DNA from: Pseudomonadota bacterium
Lineage (GTDB): Bacteria > Myxococcota_A > Polyangia > JAAYKL01
Assembly: GCA_023229365.1 (NCBI GenBank)
Contig: JALNZK010000002.1
Coordinates: forward strand, 126,343-190,342
DNA: 64,000 nt
Direction: 5' to 3'
Positions 16,293-23,948 of this stretch are shown one piece after another (the stretch's first letter is position 1; every line of letters starts with the position of its first letter). The notes under the pieces were generated by a model. That model was not told the DNA's origin, did not search any database, and worked only from the letters and a program-made list of their open reading frames with translations. The translations under genes and the position numbers were made by a program.

Positions 16293-17891
16293 TTATCCAA
16301 TGATTTTGTCATATTCCTGTCTGTTGACCGCAACAACAGTATCTGGTGATCTGGTGACATAGATCAATTCCTCGCCATCTTTGTCCCTGGTAGCCAATAT
16401 GACTTCTCTGTTCAACCCCCACAATCTTCGCAGAGAAAGGATGGTATCCTTTGCATAGGAAGGATATAGCGGATATCCATCCCACTGATGCTGTAACAAC
16501 ATGTGCCCTCTATTTAAATGGTTGGGATCAGCCAGCCGAACATCTGGCAATCCGCCGTTCAAATAATCGCCAATTAATTTCTTTTTAATTTTCTTATAGT
16601 CACGACTCTTGATTACATACTCTCCATTAGGTCGATGTTCCCACTCAAAGAATTCATATTTATTGCAAAAATCTTCTGTGAAGAATTCTGAAATAGCGGT
16701 GAAATCATTATAGAATTTTCTAACCTCTAATACTTTATCGTGCCCCAAGCCCAATTTTTCATCCCAATCTTCCCGCTGCTTGATATCTCGGCACTCATCA
16801 TACAGGGGTCCAAACTGGCCCTTATTCCAACGTTCTTCAATATCTTGAAAAATACAGAATCCTAATTTATAGGGATTCATCGAATACTTGCCGCCCAATA
16901 CCCCCATTTTGTGAATAGCATACTCAACAATGCCATTATCGTGTTCTGACTGGCCCAGACTAACGAAACCCTGTACTGCCATTAAGTTAAAATCAACAAA
17001 ACTAGCCCAGCCTTCGTTGAGCATTTTGGTCGGTCGTTGAGGACTGAAATATATTTCTTCCTCATAAATCATAGCAACAATATCAGACTGCCAAGGCTGC
17101 AAAGGTGCATAATCTCGAATGTACCGCAAAATGTCTTTTGTTGGCTCTTTGAAAATGTTTAATTCTTCGGCCACCTCCCTTTTTTCCAACCTCTTCCTTT
17201 GCTCCTTCATCCATTCTTCTGGATTGAGCCAAGGTTCCATATAATCATGCCCCTCTTGAACCGGCAAATGTTTTGGATGATGATAATGCCTCACGTCCTG
17301 TTTGATCGGGTCTTTAAATTTTCTCTGCTCCCAAGCACTAGCTGGATCGACCAACGTGGTAATTCTTAGCACATGATCTAAAAATTCTGTGACTTTTTCT
17401 TTGCCCCATCGTTGCATGTATTTGCGAATTCGAGTACCATGATTCGCCAATTCATTCATCATATTTTGACTAGTTGGCGAAAAGTAAACATTATTTTTGA
17501 AAAAGTCATTATGTCCTAAAGCATGAGCAACAACCGTAACATTATCCACCAACGTATTGGAATCGAGACAGTAAATATAACAAGGATTGCTATTTACAAC
17601 CATTTCGTAAATGCGATGCAGCCCATGTTCATAACCTTGTTGCAATTCATTGTATTCCATTCCCCAACGCCAATGCGGATAACGAACAGGGAATCCACCA
17701 TAGGATGCTACTTCGCTAATTTCATCATAAGTCAGCATCTGCACGACTGTTGGATAATACACCAATCCAAAGTCGGTTGCTGCTTTCATAATATTGGGAA
17801 TGACATTTTGCAATTCCTTAGGCAACACTACGCCAGGGATTGTGCTATCACCCATCAAGATCGGAGAACCACGCATCATTTTGCTTGCCAC
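16293..17891 (-). CDS. spoVR: SpoVR/YcgB-family protein
   Basis: 532 aa, SpoVR-like length and composition; immediately downstream of the DUF444 gene. Confidence 0.75.
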   Translation of the reverse strand: MASKMMRGSPILMGDSTIPGVVLPKELQNVIPNIMKAATDFGLVYYPTVVQMLTYDEISEVASYGGFPVRYPHWRWGMEYNELQQGYEHGLHRIYEMVVNSNPCYIYCLDSNTLVDNVTVVAHALGHNDFFKNNVYFSPTSQNMMNELANHGTRIRKYMQRWGKEKVTEFLDHVLRITTLVDPASAWEQRKFKDPIKQDVRHYHHPKHLPVQEGHDYMEPWLNPEEWMKEQRKRLEKREVAEELNIFKEPTKDILRYIRDYAPLQPWQSDIVAMIYEEEIYFSPQRPTKMLNEGWASFVDFNLMAVQGFVSLGQSEHDNGIVEYAIHKMGVLGGKYSMNPYKLGFCIFQDIEERWNKGQFGPLYDECRDIKQREDWDEKLGLGHDKVLEVRKFYNDFTAISEFFTEDFCNKYEFFEWEHRPNGEYVIKSRDYKKIKKKLIGDYLNGGLPDVRLADPNHLNRGHMLLQHQWDGYPLYPSYAKDTILSLRRLWGLNREVILATRDKDGEELIYVTRSPDTVVAVNRQEYDKIIG

Positions 17892-17903
17892 TATTTATTT
17901 CCT

Positions 17904-21654: not shown

Positions 21655-21883
21655 TATTTTGTAGTCTTTTTTTAAAAATATTCCACAAAACTCTCTTTAC
21701 AAAAACAACAATTTTATCTTTGTAAAAACCATATTTATCTTTGTAATACTGGCCAGCAGCAACAACATATTTTATCAAAACTTGTTGTAATATGCCAGTT
21801 TTCCACGCCACATATTTCACCAAAGTGGAAAACTCTGCCTTCAACCATCTATCCTGATTGATGGTTAGCTTTTTACTCGTCAT
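21644..21883 (-). CDS. hypothetical protein
   Basis: 79 aa. Confidence 0.35.
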   Translation of the reverse strand: MTSKKLTINQDRWLKAEFSTLVKYVAWKTGILQQVLIKYVVAAGQYYKDKYGFYKDKIVVFVKRVLWNIFKKRLQNNGQ

Positions 21884-23948
21884 CGCTCACATCTCCACGA
21901 CTGAAGATGCTGCCGACGTGAGCCAGAACATCCGTTGCAGATTGTTCATTATATCCATACTGTTTGATAAGACGCTGTTTGATAGCGTCAATTTTTTGTT
22001 GAATGTCGGGGTCTACTACCGAACTGCCCCGAATGTCCAAGGCACTCAATTTAATATGGTCCTTGGTGTCTTCAAAGAGCTTCATTTCCAACGCCTTTTT
22101 CAGCTTGGCATTAGAGTCCCATCGGAAAACTTTTCCTTCAATGGAAAGACTGCCGATGAAAGCAGCAATACCACGGCGGAATTCATCCACTCCCGCTTCG
22201 GGAATGTCAATCTTTTCTTCGATGCTTCTCATGAGCCGTTCGTTGGGCTCCATATCTTCGCCGGTAATTTGATTGATAACTTTGACCTTATTGATATAAG
22301 CTCGCACATTATCAATATAATTTGTGCAAAGACGGATAATGGCATCTTCGTCGCCAACAAGGGCTTTTTGGACTTCATTTTTCAAGATATCATCCAATTC
22401 CTTTCTGACGGCATCCACACATTTAATATATTTTGCCACATCCTCTTTGTTCGTGATAAGAGAGGATTGATCTAGCCCTTCCTTGATTTCATTCAAAACC
22501 ATAAATTGGTTGATATAATCGTGTCGGGCAGCTAGGCAGTTGGAAATCTTATCTTGGGTATAACGGCAGGACACACCAGACATTCCTTCTGTAGGATATT
22601 TGTCCCGCAATTCCTTGACGGTATCTTCCGTATATCCAGGCAAGCTGCGGCCATCAAGCAATTTTGCTTTATCAACCAGCGATAGTTTACCCTCTTTATC
22701 ATCCTGCAAGCGGGTTAGAATTGTCCACAATGCAGCGATTTCCAAAGTGTGAGGAGCAACGTGTTGCTTGACTTTTCCCGTCCCATAATAATGCTCCAAG
22801 ATTGCCAACTCTTCACCCCATCGAAGCAAATAAGGAACATCGATGCGAACAGTACGATCTCTCAACGCTTCCATCGTATTATCAGATCGAAGTTTTTCAA
22901 ATTCAGGATTATTAGTATGTCCAATCAAAACCGTATCAACAGAAATTTGAGCAAACTTCTTGGGCTTGATTTGTTGTTCTTGAGAGGCACCCAACAGGTC
23001 GTAGAGGAATTCTTTGGCCAACTTGAGAACTTCGATGAATTCCACTACGCCCCTGTTGCCGATGCAAAATTCGCCATCGAAATTGAACGCCCGAGGATCA
23101 GAATCTGAACCAAAATGCGGGAGTTTGGCATAATTAATGTCGCCGGTCAATTCCGTCGAATCTTGATTTTTTTCATCTTTGGGCTGGAAGGTAGCAATGC
23201 CCATACGGTCGGGCTCAGAATAAACCTTGCGAACAACACGAATGTGCTCCTTGATGACTTTGCCCCAATCACCCTCATATTTTTGCAACAACTCATTCAT
23301 AAACTTTTTGCAACGAGGGTCTAATTCATTGTCGCAGCGAAGTGTATAAAGCTGCGTGCGTTCATTTTCTGGAGTGTTGTTTTTCAACACTTCATTCAAA
23401 TCATCCACCACTCGCTTTCGCAATTCTAGGGGAAGCAACTTAAGTGGCTCTTCATGCATTGGGCAATCATCTTCGGGATGCGTATAAATACCATCTTTCC
23501 CCGTGGGCAAATTCACCCATTTGAAGGTATACCAAATGCCATCTTCGGTATTGCTGTAATATTCCATACCACGTTTGATGCATCGGCAAATAGTGGATTT
23601 GGAAGAACCCACAGGACCATGCAAAAGCAACACACGCTTTTCTGTACCATATCCGCCAGCAGCACCACGGATGAATTTGACCAAACTCTCAAGAGTTTCA
23701 TCCAATCCGAAAATAGGAATTTCAGTATTGTCGAAGAAACAATAATGAGTGTGAGTTTTTCTGTACCGCTTGAAAGTCTTTGTGCCTTCGCTCATTATCA
23801 TATCATACAATCGTTGATAAGCGGTACGAATAAGTCTGGGGGTCTTATAGCACCTTTCCAGATATTCGGCAAAACTAATTTCCTCATGAAGCACTTTGAA
23901 TTGCTTCCGATCAAACAAATTGGCGAGTTGTTCTAATTTGGTGTCCAT
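21873..23948 (-). CDS. prkA: PrkA/YeaG-family serine protein kinase (AAA plus PrkA C-terminal domain)
   Basis: LLLHGPVGSSKST Walker A; 691-aa PrkA-like architecture. Confidence 0.85.
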   Translation of the reverse strand: MDTKLEQLANLFDRKQFKVLHEEISFAEYLERCYKTPRLIRTAYQRLYDMIMSEGTKTFKRYRKTHTHYCFFDNTEIPIFGLDETLESLVKFIRGAAGGYGTEKRVLLLHGPVGSSKSTICRCIKRGMEYYSNTEDGIWYTFKWVNLPTGKDGIYTHPEDDCPMHEEPLKLLPLELRKRVVDDLNEVLKNNTPENERTQLYTLRCDNELDPRCKKFMNELLQKYEGDWGKVIKEHIRVVRKVYSEPDRMGIATFQPKDEKNQDSTELTGDINYAKLPHFGSDSDPRAFNFDGEFCIGNRGVVEFIEVLKLAKEFLYDLLGASQEQQIKPKKFAQISVDTVLIGHTNNPEFEKLRSDNTMEALRDRTVRIDVPYLLRWGEELAILEHYYGTGKVKQHVAPHTLEIAALWTILTRLQDDKEGKLSLVDKAKLLDGRSLPGYTEDTVKELRDKYPTEGMSGVSCRYTQDKISNCLAARHDYINQFMVLNEIKEGLDQSSLITNKEDVAKYIKCVDAVRKELDDILKNEVQKALVGDEDAIIRLCTNYIDNVRAYINKVKVINQITGEDMEPNERLMRSIEEKIDIPEAGVDEFRRGIAAFIGSLSIEGKVFRWDSNAKLKKALEMKLFEDTKDHIKLSALDIRGSSVVDPDIQQKIDAIKQRLIKQYGYNEQSATDVLAHVGSIFSRGDVSDDE

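Follow-up and report, generated by a model that had tools for sequence, protein, structure and literature searches.

The proteins PrkA (YeaG), YeaH and SpoVR (YcgB) are among the most widely conserved bacterial trios for which no biochemical mechanism has been agreed. In bacteria the trio has been associated with the survival of starvation, with metabolic quiescence and with sporulation, and the operon stands under the control of RpoS, NtrC or sigma-E. Among the described copies, a study of six bacteria found mutual cofitness of yeaG, yeaH and ycgB (10.1101/072470), YeaG and YeaH have been described as a 'metabolic brake' in nitrogen-starved Escherichia coli, of which the mutants die faster and regrow sooner (PMC10954441), and PrkA of Bacillus subtilis displayed Walker-A-dependent ATPase activity and a slow, ATP-dependent degradation of casein with no detectable kinase activity, and has been recast as a Lon-like protease/pseudokinase (PMC9512850). 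Here we describe a complete prkA-yeaH-spoVR set in a 64-kb stretch of contig JALNZK010000002.1 (hereafter the window, to which all positions without a locus name refer), in which eight open reading frames (ORFs) at 16293-23948, all on the minus strand, encode PrkA, five inserted proteins, the DUF444 protein YeaH and SpoVR. In the reading that we favour, with somewhat better than even confidence, the region is a phage-lineage prkA-yeaH-spoVR operon made up of a core block and an insertion, the likely mechanism of which would be a machine that sets the state of the host cell. Phage-borne copies of the trio are already present in public records, and the main interest of the locus is the core status of the trio in a large clade of huge phages.

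All three trio proteins are full length with intact family motifs. The sequence-only reading, made from the DNA letters before this analysis, had called a complete and co-oriented trio and proposed domain searches as a check, and none of these searches failed: at exact coordinates, PrkA matched PF08298 (1.4e-77, 261.6 bits against a cut-off of 25) and PF06798 (6.2e-70, 236.2 bits against 25), YeaH matched PF04285 (7.4e-65, 220.1 bits against 27) and SpoVR matched PF04293 (3.8e-107, 359 bits against 27), all far above the Pfam cut-offs. PrkA and YeaH also matched the phage families phrog_22605 (5.5e-101) and phrog_19072 (3.5e-66), respectively. The Walker A motif GPVGSSKST of PrkA, likewise picked out beforehand, was located at residues 111-119. 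Alignment of 11 diverse homologues, taken from the phage clade, bacteria, enterobacterial YeaG, Thermus phages and a Ralstonia phage, demonstrated that G111-P-V-G-x-x-K117-S118 is unchanged and that E303/E306, H344-x-N346, D364-R365 and several residues of the C-terminal domain are invariant. Residues 12-684 match a solved 692-amino acid (aa) 'Serine protein kinase' (9xip/9xiq/9xir, E value 7e-207), and K426 of the E. coli protein aligns beside K467 of the window PrkA, in 'QDK'. The score of the window PrkA against the YeaG equivalog model NF011999 was 197.7 bits against a cut-off of 576, and by sequence the protein is of the long (~690-aa) type, not of the YeaG subtype. YeaH fell below the cut-offs of all NCBIfam subfamilies (best NF003711, 298 against 388), and its metal ion-dependent adhesion site (MIDAS) is complete (D214-G-S216-G-S218, GGGT273 and TD304GE) and kept in 80 phage-clade and 53 bacterial sequences. 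The SpoVR motifs YEMVxN, AH(A/V)xxHxDFFKNN and NEG(W/F)A(S/T) are present in the window protein, the phage clade, bacteria and other phages; its C-terminal domain PF24755 scored 20 bits against a cut-off of 27.6, close relatives carrying the precomputed domain.

To place the trio, 80 IMG/VR loci related by PrkA were compared with the window. In all of these loci whose sequence reaches that far, PrkA is followed by YeaH and then SpoVR with the orientation unchanged, within a conserved block that comprises a 174-aa ORF, a 105-aa ORF, a Zn-ribbon gene, PrkA, YeaH, SpoVR, small ORFs and the alpha subunit of DNA polymerase III (pol III alpha). Nearly all 80 loci have the Zn-ribbon gene immediately upstream of prkA, and pol III alpha lies downstream of the trio in most. 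Among the 13 loci found through the polymerase, every one carries each trio gene that its sequence reaches (all three in 11/13, YeaH and SpoVR in 2/13), with a fixed syntenic position in 12 of them and, in the remaining L178, YeaH and SpoVR beyond the polymerase gene. A neighbour-joining tree of 64 distinct phage-clade PrkA sequences, the 79 best bacterial homologues and the copies of Ralstonia phage RsoM2USA and Thermus phage phiYS40 recovered the phage clade as monophyletic in 100 of 100 bootstraps, the mean identity being 0.69 between phage sequences, 0.71 between bacterial sequences from several phyla and 0.54 between phage and bacterial ones. Identity to the window across the relatives was 62-75% for PrkA, 46-66% for YeaH, 49-70% for SpoVR and 43-57% for pol III alpha. 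The pairwise ratio of non-synonymous to synonymous substitution rates (dN/dS), taken from pairs with dS < 1.5 and upper-biased because dS is near saturation, was 0.20 for PrkA, 0.25 for YeaH, 0.27 for SpoVR, 0.28 for the pol III alpha fragment and 0.44-0.56 for two neighbouring genes. As far as gene order, trees and substitution rates can tell, synteny, phylogeny and selection together show the trio to be an ancient core block, inherited vertically and under strong constraint, of a large huge-phage clade, and not the sporadic, host-derived auxiliary set that had been implied beforehand. Such long retention, under selection as strong as that on the replicative polymerase, suggests that the module meets a viral need in the infected cell, which narrows its possible functions.

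In the mechanism that we propose, PrkA would be an AAA+ motor working with YeaH, a von Willebrand factor A (vWA)/MIDAS protein, as its adaptor, and SpoVR would be a third partner, zincin-derived and metal-binding. Together, the three proteins would form an ATP-driven machine that remodels, degrades or phosphorylates/modifies proteins. Encoded by the phage, the machine would shift the host cell into the state that the module controls in bacteria, with a slowed host metabolism and an altered nitrogen and amino-acid economy. Resources might thereby be released, and the cell might stay intact for the long time that a huge phage takes to complete its cycle. Candidate effects are a slower host metabolism, a recycling of host protein and the stabilisation of a starving host. 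Several points weigh against this account or its setting. The activity of PrkA is disputed, being that of a protease in one study (PMC9512850) and of a kinase, in E. coli, in another (PMC10954441), and a slowing of metabolism might just as well reduce phage output. In the literature we found neither a discussion of the trio as a module of phages nor an experiment on a phage copy. No virion structural gene (capsid, portal or terminase) was found within the 64-kb window, and NCBI holds identical proteins on a 340,072-bp contig labelled as a 'Proteobacteria bacterium' metagenome-assembled genome (MAG). Scans of 15.5-25.5 kb gave 34 sigma-70 promoters against 28.5±5.7 in shuffles and 8 intrinsic terminators against 7.2±2.8; since both counts are at chance level, no operon boundaries were called, and it is the packing of the genes that argues for co-transcription.

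We regard it as unlikely, although a serious candidate, that the trio instead serves the phage's own biology, either as an AAA+/vWA assembly or metal-cofactor chaperone, comparable to the MoxR-vWA systems, or as a counter-defence device. The core-gene behaviour of the trio, its place inside the replication module and a conservation above that of the polymerase would all suit such a role, and AAA+/vWA pairs are typically maturation chaperones, as in RavA-ViaA, CbbQ-CbbO and NorQ-NorD. On the other hand, PrkA is 52-57% identical to its bacterial counterparts and keeps their motifs, which speaks for an unchanged activity with cellular targets that are probably conserved; moreover, no match to known defence or anti-defence models was obtained, and nothing pointed to a specific phage client.

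A bolder proposal, which we consider rather doubtful, takes the trio as a three-part ATP-dependent proteolytic/remodelling machine with a metal centre formed by HAxGH and NEGWAS, an indispensable core of the clade that would silence or turn over host proteins in the course of infection. In the structure model, SpoVR has a predicted zincin-metallopeptidase-like fold without the canonical catalytic Glu: the helix expected to hold HExxH reads H123-A-L-G-H127, and the position of the HExxH Glu is occupied by Ala or Val in every SpoVR examined. The invariant NEGWAS resembles the 'NEGFA' helix of M1 peptidases, which gives the third zinc ligand. A Foldseek search for zincins in the PDB returned nothing below E 0.1, a profile search of PDB sequences returned nothing significant, and hhalign against the PhageMetallopep protein of the window gave a Prob of 0.4%, with a sole alignment that puts HALGH on HELCH; the relationship between SpoVR and zincins is a lead suggested by the model, not a result.

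A second line of evidence concerning SpoVR comes from inteins. One or two LAGLIDADG inteins of ~350-450 aa, in frame, break up SpoVR in many relatives; they have Cys at the start and His-Asn at the end, followed by Ser or Thr (for example at L007:13306-16119 and L028:13289-17344 in IMG/VR relatives); the SpoVR of the window carries none. The first site lies directly after YEMV(I/V)N, equivalent to the junction of N100 and S101 in the window SpoVR, and the second lies within NEGWAS, between its Ala and final Ser (A296 and S297). Inteins typically occupy the most conserved, critical sites of indispensable proteins, and their presence in these motifs supports the importance of SpoVR to the phages and suggests that YEMVxN and NEGWAS constitute its functional centre. 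It is on this point that the three-part machine draws, given that NEGWAS and the upstream YEMVxN are the invaded sites. Were that proposal true, phage genomics would have explained how a widespread bacterial module works, after 30 years without a mechanism; in any case, the intein sites and the zincin-like model fold supply concrete residues for mutation.

As for the origin of the trio, the best bacterial PrkA matches were 52-57% identical in tblastn, none above 57%, and were spread over Calditrichota, Planctomycetota, Myxococcota, Chloroflexota and Bdellovibrionota. The PrkA phylogeny that had been suggested for identifying the donor was built, and no donor lineage could be named, the best matches being scattered over at least five phyla. 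A recent capture of the trio by the phage from its present host, in the manner of a classical auxiliary metabolic gene or moron, would account for a gene order like that of bacterial operons, and copies of 25-30% identity in unrelated phages (Thermus phages, RsoM2USA and the huge phage LR745206, with LR756504 and LR756502 matched on PrkA) suggest that several independent captures have occurred. For the present clade we find it quite improbable, given the distance to every bacterial PrkA, the lack of a favoured donor, the fully supported monophyly, the fixed position in all reaching loci of the 80 and in 12 of the 13 polymerase-found loci, and a GC content in line with the rest of the window.

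The assignment of the sequence to a phage, which the sequence-only reading had assumed, withstood the comparison with databases. At least 137 viral contigs in IMG/VR, up to 572 kb in length, encode a PrkA 62-75% identical to that of the window, and LR756511.1 ('uncultured phage', 595 kb) was the sole DNA-level match among 50,697 phage records; no mention of LR756511 was found in the literature. The content of the window is also of phage type, with GIY-YIG-type and other homing endonucleases, several DNA methyltransferases, a thymidylate synthase, a UvsX-like fragment, a CCA-adding-type nucleotidyltransferase, a PhageMetallopep domain, a truncated pol III alpha and dense small ORFans on one strand. 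A transfer-messenger RNA (tmRNA) gene at 6247-6591 (-) encodes the tag peptide ANDYVALAA, the form of which (ANDxxxALAA) we take to resemble proteobacterial tags, a weak hint as to the host.

Two endonuclease-like genes in the window lie on the strand opposite to most others. One, at 36665-37474 (+), encodes a GIY-YIG-type homing endonuclease, and the protein encoded at 47195-47887 (+) matches 'head closure' and endonuclease families of PHROGs. Such opposite-strand endonuclease genes fit the intein- and intron-rich nature of the clade.

The MAG labels within the clade are mutually incompatible, comprising Proteobacteria and, for two contigs of ~546 kb (L084, 546,147 bp, and P0135, 546,492 bp), Bacteriovoracaceae and 'Crenarchaeota archaeon'. 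Huge phages mis-binned into cellular MAGs typically look so; these contigs are probably such genomes, and we judge the 'Proteobacteria bacterium' label to be a binning error. It is therefore very improbable that the contig is a fragment of a bacterial chromosome or megaplasmid bearing the bacterium's own prkA-yeaH-spoVR operon: that label, the binning of a related 546-kb contig as a Bacteriovoracaceae MAG and the lack of capsid, portal and terminase genes in the window would fit a cellular replicon, but the labels contradict one another, the closest relatives are the IMG/VR viral contigs and LR756511.1, the gene content (tmRNA, homing endonucleases, methyltransferases, split pol III alpha and ORFans) is phage-like, and the PrkA clade stands apart from all 79 bacterial sequences sampled.

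Within the window the three genes retain the order prkA, yeaH, spoVR in one orientation but are not contiguous. The ORF calls agree with the sequence-only reading that five genes, here amounting to 2.7 kb, lie between prkA and yeaH-spoVR. None of the five was found in the 80 related loci, where the gap between prkA and yeaH ranges from -11 to 2496 bp (median 170 bp) and holds a cargo that differs between phages (for example L075:12320-12910, L057:12389-14586 and L084:8124-9782): a ~70-aa protein recurs, another product is probably a macrodomain protein, and ORFs of 240-550 aa are zinc-finger/endonuclease-like. The varied length and cargo mark this intergenic region as a variable insertion hot spot, the GC content of the inserted genes is not anomalous, and the comparison shows the five genes, by their distribution among these relatives, to be an insertion into the hot spot in this phage only and not parts of the module. 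The neighbouring M28 peptidase gene has no homologue in the 80 loci either and, by the same comparison, is a second insertion specific to this phage, between the Zn-ribbon gene and prkA. Inserted genes 1, 2 and 3 gave no significant family match (Pfam for all three, NCBIfam for 1 and 2). A PADLOC scan that covered the trio, the M28 peptidase and four inserted proteins (the 60-aa ORF left out) returned nothing for the trio, the M28 peptidase or inserted genes 1, 4 and 5, and one marginal match for the 167-aa ORF (E 0.0096). That all eight genes form one functional system, with the five inserted proteins as new subunits of the PrkA machine, is hardly credible, since, in spite of the tight packing with overlaps of 1-11 nt, the single orientation and the absence of clear promoters or terminators inside the run, the 80 relatives have none of the five genes in the vicinity of the trio, unrelated ORFs occupy the same site in other phages, and two of the five recur as a pair in five other contexts that contain no trio genes.

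This pair consists of inserted genes 4 and 5. The product of gene 4, referred to below as mini-GluRS for its likeness to glutamyl-tRNA synthetase (GluRS), matched PF00749 (1.8e-23) in two pieces and carries class I motifs, namely HLGH (HIGH-type) at residues 14-17 and 'DMSKT' near residue 190. Its residues 2-90 and 120-210 align to residues 13-95 and 188-275 of GluRS, ~90 residues of the middle (connective-peptide) region of GluRS being replaced by ~30. It had first been read as a synthetase paralogue resembling GluQRS (YadB, the tRNA-Asp queuosine glutamyl transferase), which is likewise a stand-alone GluRS-type Rossmann domain without an anticodon-binding domain. However, GluQRS is ~300 aa long and possesses the middle region, whereas mini-GluRS has 238 aa and lacks it. 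The scores against five GluQRS models (TIGR03838 and NF004312-NF004315) were 46-90 bits, below cut-offs of 250-453, and those against the GluRS models of NCBIfam were also far below their cut-offs. In an exhaustive search, 73 cluster representatives had E values below 1e-30, and almost every one of the best 150 matches was 225-265 aa in length. With sub-cut-off scores, no middle region and a family of its own, an identity as GluQRS was ruled out, and by sequence mini-GluRS is a member of a distinct family of minimal GluRS-like proteins. An IMG/VR scan with mini-GluRS found no close relative.

The 344-aa product of gene 5 had been called glycoside-hydrolase-like, of which a weak N-terminal similarity to glycoside hydrolase family 42 (GH42) holds up, while the Pfam threshold was missed: PF02449 scored 19.6 bits against a cut-off of 21 (E 6.5e-4), over residues 35-95 only. 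A word-indexed search gave three matches only, and an AlphaFold2 model built on the resulting three-sequence alignment reached a predicted local distance difference test (pLDDT) score of 46, too poor for a fold test, and was not used. In five other metagenomic contexts (L165:8978-11760, L166, L169:6001-7706, L170:4646-6439 and L172:6001-7776), a mini-GluRS gene adjoins a homologue of this gene encoding ~330-345 aa (29-38% identity), one of these contexts having a copy on both sides; the two genes are thus neighbours in every case. The neighbours there are glycosyltransferases, RmlC/RmlD-type enzymes or a Mu-like portal, and no trio gene is among them. Recurrence of the pair away from the trio marks it as a mobile two-gene cassette, probably independent of the trio; judged by its neighbours and similarities, the cassette is probably sugar-related and may represent an uncharacterised sugar-related aminoacyl-ligase system.

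Identical gene calls were obtained from an independent assembly of the region (Logan SRR6484787). Within the eight-gene run, adjacent genes either share 1-11 nt or leave a gap of 12-46 nt, and the arrangement fits one transcription unit as far as spacing indicates. The features of the run and of its surroundings are collected in Table 1.

Table 1 Genes of the prkA-yeaH-spoVR run and context genes in the window.
Feature	Position	Strand	Length	Description
prkA	21873-23948	-	691 aa	AAA+ ATPase with PrkA C-terminal (kinase-like) domain; PF08298, PF06798
Inserted gene 1	21644-21883	-	79 aa	Hypothetical; 11-nt overlap with prkA stop
Inserted gene 2	21151-21654	-	167 aa	Hypothetical
Inserted gene 3	20969-21151	-	60 aa	Translation mostly hydrophobic runs; probably membrane
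Inserted gene 4	20253-20969	-	238 aa	Minimal GluRS-like class I catalytic core; PF00749
Inserted gene 5	19219-20253	-	344 aa	Weak N-terminal GH42-like similarity
yeaH/yhbH-type DUF444 gene	17904-19172	-	422 aa	PF04285, vWA-type MIDAS motif
spoVR	16293-17891	-	532 aa	From GTG; alternative ATG at 17879 gives 528 aa; PF04293
Zn-ribbon gene (context)	25111-25458	-		PF09723 at 7e-9; upstream neighbour of prkA in relatives
M28 peptidase gene (context)	24094-25107	-		PF04389 at 1.3e-39; N-terminal hydrophobic segment
DNA polymerase III alpha, N-terminal part (context)	13410-14747	-		PF02811 at 4.9e-42, PF07733 at 6.3e-23

The replicative polymerase gene is split or fragmented. Its ORF encodes the N-terminal 445 aa only, which take in the PHP domain and the beginning of the NTPase domain, and ends just past 'SRFLSPARGG'; the remainder is not adjacent, and relatives have the same N-terminal unit.

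The sequence-only reading knew of no description of the trio on phages, which proved too strong. All three families (PrkA, DUF444 and SpoVR) exist in PHROGs, PrkA was found in 17 records of the phage collection by tblastn, and the full trio is carried by the cultured phage phiYS40 (in GenBank since 2006), with relatives, and by RsoM2USA. Both phiYS40 and RsoM2USA offer tractable test systems. Six cultured Thermus phages (phiYS40, TMA, YS40_Isch, phiLo, Lalka and MN1), with genomes of 69-179 kb and a thermophilic host, have a PrkA labelled 'serine kinase' or 'AAA family ATPase' that is ~30% identical to the window's. In phiYS40, ORF56, 57 and 59 are DUF444, SpoVR and PrkA by Pfam, the depositors having written 'SpoVR' and 'serine kinase' for the last two; the order, DUF444-SpoVR-(616-aa protein)-PrkA, is unlike that of the window, and by its divergence the Thermus-phage trio is probably a separate acquisition. 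The 616-aa product of ORF58 (L002:4067-5917), which sits between SpoVR and PrkA, has no Pfam match and is perhaps a fourth component peculiar to this lineage, or else a further insertion. RsoM2USA, a cultured jumbo phage of 344 kb, has a contiguous PrkA-DUF444-SpoVR set (ORF30-29-28, by Pfam), in which PrkA is of the enterobacterial/short-form type and 25% identical to the window's and SpoVR is reported to be ~56% identical to that of Vibrio; by these relationships its trio is an independent capture. The paper on this phage listed SpoVR under replication/repair and PrkA under signal transduction, with no link drawn between them (PMC8504454). In another group of huge phages, of which LR745206 is the representative, the full trio is present at ~26% identity, and LR756504 and LR756502 matched on PrkA only. 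Enterobacter phage LAU1 was considered as a further example and set aside as likely host flank, its 'YeaG/YeaH' genes lying at the edge of a 30.8-kb record beside tail-fibre genes.

Beyond phages, the MoxR-type systems RavA-ViaA, CbbQ-CbbO and NorQ-NorD likewise pair an AAA+ protein with a vWA/MIDAS protein, a comparison of how the systems may work and nothing else, and FtsH, in which an AAA+ domain is fused to a zincin peptidase, has a parallel in the zincin-like third component that the predicted fold suggests for the window. The trio belongs to neither by sequence: the AAA domain of PrkA is a Pfam family of its own, and SpoVR is without the HExxH glutamate. The closest described system is the bacterial operon itself (yeaG-yeaH and ycgB in E. 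coli, prkA-yhbH and spoVR in B. subtilis), with which the window shares the Pfam families, the order, the orientation and the motifs; of 80 bacterial loci with a complete trio, most likewise have the order prkA, yeaH, spoVR. It is to the bacterial long-form (~690-aa) PrkA that the 52-57% identity given above applies. Unlike the bacterial operon, the trio described here does not reach the scores required by the NCBIfam equivalog models of enterobacterial YeaG, YeaH and YcgB, is borne by a huge phage, forms a separate monophyletic clade and has five genes interposed between prkA and yeaH.

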